DNA of 4,675 nt, taken from IMG/VR virus record IMGVR_UViG_2734482570_000004; one strand, given 5' to 3'. The position numbers and the translations under genes were made by a program. Positions 1 to 769 of the stretch are shown here, in pieces. The stretch's first letter is position 1; the number at the start of each line of letters is the position of its first letter. Under the pieces are notes generated by a model that did not search any database, was not told the DNA's origin, and worked only from the letters and a program-made list of their open reading frames with translations. Source of the stretch: a virus. Lineage: Duplodnaviria; Heunggongvirae; Uroviricota; Caudoviricetes.

Positions 1-351
1 AACGTTGGGTTTTTCTGCTCATTATTAGCTCCTTCTGATGCCATTCTATTTCAGGAAGGAGTGTCCGTTAAACTCAGGCTACCTCAGGTTATTCGCTTCT
101 GGGCATGGGCGGATCAACAAATGATAGACGGTAATGCAGATTGTAACGCTCGCGGCGTTACAAAAAGTGCAATAGATCGCATCACTTTTATGTCTGGTTT
201 TGCTGATGCGTTAATTCAGGTTGGATGGCTGGTCGAAAATGACGGAGGGCTTTCTCTACCTAACTTTGAACGTCATAACGGAAAAAGCTCTAAAAAAAAC
301 GGGCGGTTACAAACGAGCGAGTAACAAAAATACGCGAACTGAAACGAAAAG

Positions 352-370
352 GTAACGCTGCCAGCGTTAC
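352..370. repeat. Perfect 9-bp inverted repeat with 1-nt centre (GTAACGCTG c CAGCGTTAC)
   Basis: Read directly from the sequence; the reverse complement of 352..360 equals 362..370. Confidence 0.9.
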
Positions 371-395
371 ACAAACGGATCAAAAAGCGTTACCA

Positions 396-413
396 GAGGA
401 AGAGGAAGAGGAA
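396..413. repeat. Tandem hexanucleotide repeat (GAGGAA)x3, encoding a poly-Glu stretch in frame 3
   Basis: Read directly from the sequence: gaggaa gaggaa gaggaa. Confidence 0.9.
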
Positions 414-769
414 GATCTAAATACTGATCTCCCCCTCGCCAAAAACGAGCGTCTAAAAAATTCGAGCCGGAGGCTATTGAGCTGCCCGATTGGTTGCCGG
501 AAACACTCTGGCATGAGTGGGTCCGGTTCAGACAGGCATTGCGAAAACCGATTCGAACGGAGCAGGGCGCTAACGGGGCGATACGGGAACTGGAAAAATT
601 CCGTCAGCAGGGTTTTACACCTGAGCAGGTGATTCGACACAGCATCGCCAATGAATACCAGGGCCTGTTCGCGCCGAAAGGTGTTCGGCCTGAGACGTTG
701 CTCCGACAGGTTAACACCGTCTCGTTGCCGGACAGTGCGATCCCGCCAGGCTTCAGGGGGTAACGGACC

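Follow-up and report, generated by a model that had tools for sequence, protein, structure and literature searches.

The findings in this study indicated that positions 87-763 of the window, the 4,675-nucleotide stretch of DNA analysed here, are a recently inactivated pseudogene of the replication initiator of a lambdoid (Rac-like) prophage in Shigella sonnei, a reading to which we assign a probability of about 0.95. Three independent lesions destroyed the S. sonnei gene: insertion of IS600, addition of two adenines, and deletion of 10 bp. In E. coli prophages and phages the orthologues are one continuous open reading frame (ORF); relative to these, IS600, flanked by a duplicated GGT, lies after codon 35, the two extra bases lie at 292-299, and the ten missing bases fall at 430-436. 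The initial annotation had placed an initiator gene at positions 1-763 and described it as split across three reading frames. The split was confirmed, in the frame order 1, 3, 2, by the translations of window positions 1-765 together with the orthologue alignment. The placement held for 87/88-763 but not for positions 1-86, which are the left end of IS600, as judged from matches to annotated IS600, the terminal repeat and the GGT duplication; this insertion was a third lesion that the initial annotation had missed.

The open stretches in window positions 1-765 ran in frame 1 to approximately 324, in frame 3 from approximately 300 to 430, and in frame 2 from approximately 430 to the stop codon at 761-763. 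When positions 1-800 were compared by megablast with 5,426 complete E. coli genomes, 681 genomes covered at least 80% of the query, and the best matches were 97-98% identical over window positions 86-800, with 715 window bases corresponding to 723 record bases. The matching E. coli records carried a single annotated 789-nt CDS upstream of ydaV, translating to 262 aa and labelled either "hypothetical protein" or "phage replication initiator YdaU family protein". Intact E. coli copies included WP_038340159.1 (FDAARGOS_944) and WP_001737256.1, and the DNA alignment with two intact copies contained exactly two indels inside the gene.

The surviving coding sequence lay in three plus-strand fragments, one in each frame. 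Fragment 1 (88..297, frame 1) encoded residues 36-105, the rest of the N-terminal region, and was identical to the intact protein at 70 of 70 residues. Fragment 2 (300..428, frame 3) encoded residues 106-148, a basic/acidic linker reading KKRAVTNERV...PEEEEEEDLNTD, identical at 43 of 43 residues. Fragment 3 (431..763, frame 2) encoded residues 153-262 and the stop codon, identical at 110 of 110 residues, and represented the C-terminal domain, which resembled the C-terminal domain (CTD) of DnaT and was of the YdaU type, ending in ...VNTVSLPDSAIPPGFRG. Together, the three segments were identical to the intact 262-aa E. coli FDAARGOS_944 protein (WP_038340159.1) at 223 of 223 residues, far beyond chance. 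As the remnant had accumulated no amino-acid substitution relative to that protein, inactivation of the initiator looks very recent. The acidic linker contained an EEEEEE stretch encoded by a (GAGGAA)3 hexamer repeat (396..413, plus strand). The copy number of this repeat was three in the window and in E. coli, six or seven in five S. sonnei assemblies (L016-L018, L020 and L021; a gain of 18 or 24 nt), and two plus a substitution in the S. flexneri locus (L003). This variation is either real repeat instability or an effect of long-read assembly.

The first frameshift occurred at a run of eight adenines (A8; 292..299, plus strand), where the gene passed from frame 1 to frame 3 as the initial annotation had proposed. 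Six adenines (A6) stood at this site in the intact E. coli orthologues and in S. flexneri, as well as in the orthologues from Mixta, Erwinia, Rahnella and Pectobacterium, and the window therefore has an insertion of two bases relative to the ancestral run. The A8 run is the derived state, because A6 was found also in the orthologues from Mixta, Erwinia, Rahnella and Pectobacterium. Past the A8 run, frame 1 reached a stop codon at 322-324. The A8 form was present in none of the 5,426 complete E. coli genomes, the best match being 97.5% identical with a 2-nt gap.

The second frameshift, from frame 3 to frame 2, had been located within 428..480, near C5, A5 and A6 runs. That position was correct as regards the C5 run, but the orthologue alignment showed that the A5 and A6 runs were not the site. 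At the junction (430..436, plus strand), TCCCCCTAAA was lost between two TCCCCCT direct repeats, which is a deletion of the replication-slippage type; the undeleted form of the site is TCCCCCTAAATCCCCCT. The deletion removed four residues (149-152) of the 262-aa protein. It was found in none of the 5,426 complete E. coli genomes, among which the best match was 89-90% identical with a 9- or 10-nt gap.

The third lesion lay at the left edge of the window. Positions 1..86 were the left end of IS600 on the minus strand, with the terminal inverted repeat ending at 86 and the window showing the reverse complement of the element; this stretch did not belong to the initiator gene. Window positions 1-85 did not align to the orthologues, and positions 1-90 alone gave 100% matches at thousands of places in E. 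coli records annotated as IS3-like IS600 family transposase. The ATG of IS600 orfA lay within this end (22..20, minus strand), and in the full S. sonnei context IS600 orfA/orfB were called directly upstream. Since positions 1-86 match IS600, the open frame 1 over this stretch is the antisense strand of IS600, and 87/88 is where the initiator remnant begins. On inserting between codons 35 and 36, IS600 duplicated a 3-bp target site, GGT, whose right-hand copy occupies 87..89 (plus strand). A complete IS600 in a long S. sonnei contig (L014) separated initiator codons 1-35, including the ATG, from the remainder of the gene. Its left flank read ...GGGAAGGT joined to TGAGGTGTAC and its right flank ...ACCTCA joined to GGTTATTCGC, compared with GGGAAGGTTATTCGC in the intact sequence. 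The reverse complement of the left inverted repeat (IRL) stood at the junction, and the IRL and IRR motifs with the 3-bp GGT duplication identified an IS600 insertion; entry of IS600 into the initiator gene was thus a simple insertion with a 3-bp GGT duplication.

The insertion split the start codon and the promoter off from the rest of the initiator gene, and the start codon lay 1.26 kb from the remnant, on the other side of IS600. No plus-strand sigma-70-like promoter site was found in window positions 1-900, where the sole promoter-like match (71..43, minus strand) was IS600's own. Transcripts may read through into the remnant from IS600 or from upstream. With its start codon removed and two frameshifts in the remainder, the initiator remnant presumably now yields no functional product.

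IS600 also bounded the window on the right, where the last 107 bases (4569..4675, minus strand) were the right end of a second copy: they matched annotated IS600 at 100%, carried the IRR motif and, in the full context, were followed downstream by IS600 genes. The whole window therefore lay between two like-oriented copies of IS600, which accounts for its repeated appearance in short-read assemblies as a contig of 2-5 kb. In three S. sonnei draft contigs (L019, L022 and L023; approximately 7170-10000), a K-12-type Rac module abutted the same IS600 that precedes the pseudogene; this module carried a DUF1376-type ydaU of 285 aa and a ydaV truncated at about 214-241 aa. Either IS600-mediated rearrangement has brought a second Rac-like prophage to this place, or the contigs were joined across the repeat during assembly.

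We considered whether the frame changes could be sequencing or assembly artefacts, a homopolymer miscall together with a collapsed short repeat in a gene that is in reality continuous. The A8 run is a homopolymer and the deletion lies between short direct repeats, both error-prone contexts, and the window itself is short, a contig with an IS element at each end. The recurrence of the lesions across assemblies, however, led us to reject this explanation as extremely improbable. All ten aligned loci, which came from different S. sonnei assemblies, had the A8 run, the 10-bp deletion and the junction with IS600. The assemblies ranged from short-read drafts to several with multi-megabase contigs, 4.8-Mb contigs among them, and the loci varied only in GAGGAA copy number, except that L022 also had a few point substitutions. 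A diagnostic marker was the 87-aa product of the ORF at 61..324, which begins inside the IS600 end and spans both the IS600 junction and the A8 shift. An exact-protein look-up found this product on 492 contigs, indexed in 481 blocks of public assemblies, and several submitters had annotated it from S. sonnei, under names such as "putative bacteriophage protein [Shigella sonnei]", FORC11_0721 and UniRef A0A2Y6EAI8_SHISO. The longest contig carrying it measured 2-5 kb in 397 of the 481 blocks, a size that fits repeated recovery of one IS600-bounded contig from short-read data. The translation of window positions 1-324, which starts at the contig edge, had no recorded match. The gene would be broken by the IS600 insertion and its target duplication even if the two indels were errors. 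Being recurrent across S. sonnei assemblies and absent from complete E. coli genomes, the lesions are real and characteristic of S. sonnei. The initial annotation had left the choice between real shifts and a single fusion protein, and its interpretation was essentially right but incomplete, as the substance of both branches holds: the shifts recur in hundreds of independent S. sonnei assemblies, and a single fusion is true of the undamaged ancestor, as represented by the continuous 262-aa orthologues with a DnaT-like C-terminal domain.

Two functional explanations for the split were weighed against pseudogenization. In one, a -1 ribosomal frameshift or transcriptional slippage at the A8 run, combined with a second recoding event, would restore the full-length protein, and the split would be regulatory. 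Read in frame 1, the run contains A_AAA_AAC, a canonical slippery heptamer for -1 shifts, at which a -1 shift gives exactly the observed change from frame 1 to frame 3, and a weak GTTAC...GTAAC inverted repeat begins 6 nt downstream of the A8 run. That inverted repeat, however, was present in the unshifted orthologues too, and A6, translated without a change of frame, was the ancestral and widespread state, seen in four other genera as well as in E. coli and S. flexneri. No slippery site accompanies the second shift, which is a 10-bp deletion, and IS600 places the start codon 1.26 kb away. With the two-frame arrangement not conserved and two other lesions present, we rejected programmed frameshifting at the A8 run and consider recoding of this gene exceedingly unlikely, although the heptamer could cause a minority of transcripts or ribosomes to shift at the first lesion. 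The other explanation, that the pieces are now separate small genes and that the DnaT-like domain (frame 2, 494..763 or longer) is made on its own and retained with ydaV for a benefit to the host, appeared very unlikely. In its favour, S. sonnei FORC11 has a protein annotation for the C-terminal ORF (FORC11_0720), which stands directly upstream of an intact ydaV and has no amino-acid changes. The two upstream fragments, which are clearly dead, are just as free of substitutions, however, so that this reflects recency rather than selection. The only in-frame start was a TTG at 494, upstream of which no Shine-Dalgarno-like motif was seen on reading the sequence, and no plus-strand promoter-like site was found in positions 1-900. 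In addition, S. flexneri independently destroyed the DnaT-like domain by an 11-bp deletion. Comparison with homologues, which could have revealed genuinely separate small genes with their own starts, returned single 262-aa ORFs, and the reading of one split gene survived.

The pseudogene is followed, 6 nt downstream of its stop codon, by ydaV (770..1516, plus strand), an intact DnaC-like helicase loader gene of 248 aa. The product matched NF009043 at 510 bits over residues 1-248 of 248 and phrog_50 (DnaC-like helicase loader); against the DnaC equivalog it scored 306 bits (E = 1.7e-91), below the 357-bit cut-off. It showed no differences from the E. coli FDAARGOS_944 copy, and the products of DUF977, a 118-aa ORF and QueH differed from their E. 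coli copies by zero or one residue. The proposal that the prophage has lost its initiator while keeping an intact DnaC-like loader was borne out, as the lesions are real and the 248-aa YdaV is identical to that of an E. coli prophage. Retention of ydaV by selection is not supported by identity alone; because the dead initiator fragments are equally unmutated, intact ydaV reflects recency and not selection.

Loss of the initiator was one of several defects in a prophage that is now a rearranged, IS-filled, scrambled remnant. The DUF1367/NinB-like gene, beginning at 4220, was truncated at 4568/4569 by the second IS600, leaving profile positions 1-102 of 198. In long S. sonnei contigs, an integrase fragment stood directly after the second IS600, and the lysis and terminase genes lay on the other side, inverted, among IS elements. 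Just upstream of the initiator, ydaT of S. sonnei (L014, at about 8194) had lost 1 bp after about codon 13 relative to E. coli FDAARGOS_944; as ydaT is also frameshifted, the whole early rightward operon is decaying. A run of 361 N at window positions 3226-3586 replaced 259 nt present in related S. sonnei and E. coli loci. The masked 259 nt comprised the upstream region and start of a hok (HokD-type) toxin gene, with the Hok C-terminus resuming at 3587-3686; given the difference between 361 and 259, every coordinate beyond the right edge of the mask is offset by +102 from the real sequence. No Rfam RNA family was found anywhere in the window.

The same initiator gene was broken independently in S. 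flexneri. S. flexneri SFBU1023 (L003:6001-6769) carried an 11-bp frameshifting deletion (GGGCGCTAACG) in the DnaT-like domain and a 6-bp in-frame loss in the GAGGAA repeat, while retaining A6 and having neither the 10-bp deletion nor IS600. IS insertions together with small frameshifting indels are the typical pattern of Shigella genome reduction. The window, flanked by IS600 at either end, carries small frameshifting indels in a gene that has also decayed independently in S. flexneri; nothing sets it apart from this pattern, and the initiator remnant is ordinary Shigella prophage decay, an event of a kind already known.

The family to which the ancestral protein belonged was determined from an intact orthologue. 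Against PHROG 2509 ("replication initiation protein"), the match was full length (residues 1-262 against 1-277 of 277; E = 1.2e-89). The N-terminal half matched phrog_9474 ("replication initiation protein") and the C-terminal half matched phrog_6451 ("primosomal protein"; E = 1.7e-39), and residues 77-236 matched phrog_678 ("replication initiation O-like"; E = 7.3e-26). Phage orthologues 96% identical to the protein included the "DNA replication protein O" of Escherichia phage vB_EcoS-673R7 and ydaU of phage Rac MN652886. The intact PHROG 2509 copies shared 98% nucleotide identity with the window over 86-800, as well as the neighbouring genes (cro and ydaT upstream; ydaV, DUF977, QueH and hok downstream). 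They differed in that the window copy, broken by IS600, the two added adenines and the 10-bp loss, cannot encode 262 aa. An initiator role for the phrog_2509 family is suggested by annotation, synteny and domain similarity; a search of the literature on ydaU, ydaV and DnaT-like proteins found no experimental study of this protein family.

The initial annotation had also proposed a DnaT-like C-terminus, and both alignment to DnaT and the phrog_6451 match of the intact orthologue upheld this. In a phmmer comparison with PDB sequences, residues 170-262 aligned to DnaT residues 92-179 (2ru8_A, E = 9.5e-5; 9zbt_D, E = 3.2e-4). Similarity to the DnaT CTD extended over the C-terminal 93 residues, with the middle of the domain weakly conserved in the alignment. 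The C-terminal tail was nearly identical to that of E. coli DnaT (PDB 2ru8, 6aep, 9zbt), with NTVS-PDS-IPPGFRG in common, and the order of dnaT followed by dnaC corresponded to that of the window initiator gene followed by a dnaC-like gene. The DnaT N-terminal domain, however, was absent from the window initiator. The protein did not pass the NCBIfam DnaT equivalog NF002770, scoring 16.2 bits against a cut-off of 201 with only the last 19 residues matching, and on this score we rejected it as an orthologue of DnaT (primosomal protein I).

A relationship to the Rac YdaU family, named beforehand as a comparison to make, applied to one half of the protein only. The C-terminal 124 residues were 81% identical to those of E. 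coli K-12 Rac YdaU (285 aa, DUF1376/PF07120), with an identical tail (VNTVSLPDSAIPPGFRG), and the K-12 gene occupies the same position upstream of ydaV. The N-terminal half, however, was unrelated and had no DUF1376 match. No Pfam hit, DUF1376 (PF07120) included, was obtained for the intact initiator even at E values up to 10, and BLASTP to K-12-type YdaU aligned only residues 139-262; DUF1376 membership was rejected on these grounds. Sequence comparison indicated that the window initiator and K-12 YdaU are a domain-swapped mosaic and not one family over their full length.

The Pectobacterium (L009:6001-6900) and Rahnella (L007:3014-3913) orthologues shared the N-terminal region of approximately 145 residues, with its intragenic repeats, and differed in their C-terminal domains. 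The Pectobacterium C-terminal domain (...FSDWRPSLDF...YWQPEGKAFHQLQWDQKFARH...) looks strikingly DnaT-like, even more so than that of the E. coli initiator; the Rahnella C-terminal domain did not align. Because these orthologues pair the same N-terminal region with other C-terminal domains, the initiator family appears modular, which by sequence comparison indicates shuffling between an origin-specific module and a host-interaction module.

Bacteriophage lambda O has an N-terminal part that binds the origin and a C-terminal part that recruits the helicase loader; its gene lies upstream of the loader gene and contains the origin repeats. The initiator described here shares this layout of an N-terminal, putatively origin-binding part, a C-terminal, putatively loader-recruiting part and a gene upstream of that for the loader, and the GTAACGC repeats described below fit as candidate counterparts of the repeats of ori-lambda. 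It differed from lambda O in having no full-length match to the lambda O family, the only O-like match being that of phrog_678 to residues 77-236, and in having a DnaC-like partner instead of lambda P.

These comparisons show that the ancestral gene encoded one 262-aa protein with an N-terminal region of the phrog_2509/9474 "replication initiation" type, presumably recognising the origin, followed by an acidic linker and a C-terminal domain related to the DnaT CTD. The gene stood directly upstream of the DnaC-like loader gene ydaV, mirroring the host dnaT-dnaC operon. The protein was probably the phage initiator, its N-terminal region binding the origin and its C-terminal domain handling single-stranded DNA (ssDNA) or the hand-off to the loader, by analogy with DnaT. 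In the preprimosome structure, PriA is the docking site of the DnaT CTD, which assembles into a filament on the ssDNA of the lagging strand (PMC13377028), and the same paper remarked on the dnaT-dnaC operon and the genetic link between the two genes (PMC13377028). This analogy suggests an ssDNA hand-off role for the DnaT-like domain of the initiator. The initiator would bind the origin by its N-terminal region, and the DnaT-like domain would act on the opened ssDNA and pass it to YdaV. In S. sonnei, IS600 entered after codon 35 with duplication of GGT, removing the start codon and promoter; two adenines were added to the A6 run, and ten base pairs were lost by slippage between the TCCCCCT repeats.

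The initiator gene also contained candidate origin repeats. The heptamer GCGTTAC or its complement occurred five times in window positions 143-393, compared with 0.37 expected for the whole window. Two palindromes of the form GTAACGC-N5-GCGTTAC, 19 bp each and not assigned to either strand, marked two clusters: a candidate initiator-binding site at 143..161 (iteron cluster 1), and a candidate iteron cluster 2 at 352..393, in the linker-coding region, where the palindrome (352-370) was accompanied by a GCGTTAC half-site (387-393). A weaker GTTAC/GTAAC pair was seen at 306-325. Orthologues from four other genera, with proteins 57-69% identical, had the heptamers at matching places in the gene with 12-bp spacing; the heptamers were absent from K-12-type ydaU, whose N-terminal half differs. 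At sites where the amino acid was conserved in all five sequences compared, the codon was identical in 6 of 7 cases inside the motifs, compared with 12 of 72 outside (Fisher p = 4e-4); this conservation of synonymous sites points to constraint on the repeats at the DNA level. The repeats were thus clustered and phased, conserved as DNA and tied to the initiator's N-terminal type, in keeping with repeats of the iteron type. Their likeliest role, judging from their position and conservation, is that of the initiator's binding sites, making them a candidate origin inside the initiator gene, as in lambda.

We tentatively suggest that the dead gene still carries a live cis element, a possibility that we rate at somewhat less than even odds. 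The repeats at 143-161 and 352-393 would be the origin, which the N-terminal domain would recognise, and the domain resembling the DnaT CTD would coat ssDNA and hand it to YdaV; the origin and loader that remain in S. sonnei could then be fired in trans. If this were true, S. sonnei would keep an origin and an intact loader that a superinfecting or co-resident phage could fire by supplying the same initiator.

The value of these findings lies mainly in annotation. Records of S. sonnei genomes list the pieces as separate proteins, named hypothetical or "bacteriophage" (for example, FORC11_0720, the frame-2 ORF in S. sonnei FORC11, and FORC11_0721), and entries of these types should become one pseudogene interrupted by IS600. 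The gene also adds a dated example to the well-known IS-driven decay of prophages in Shigella. The architecture of the intact initiator family, in which swappable N-terminal modules tied to intragenic repeats are combined with a DnaT-like C-terminal module and a DnaC-like partner, seems little studied, and the family would be a reasonable system in which to learn how phage initiators plug into host helicase loading.
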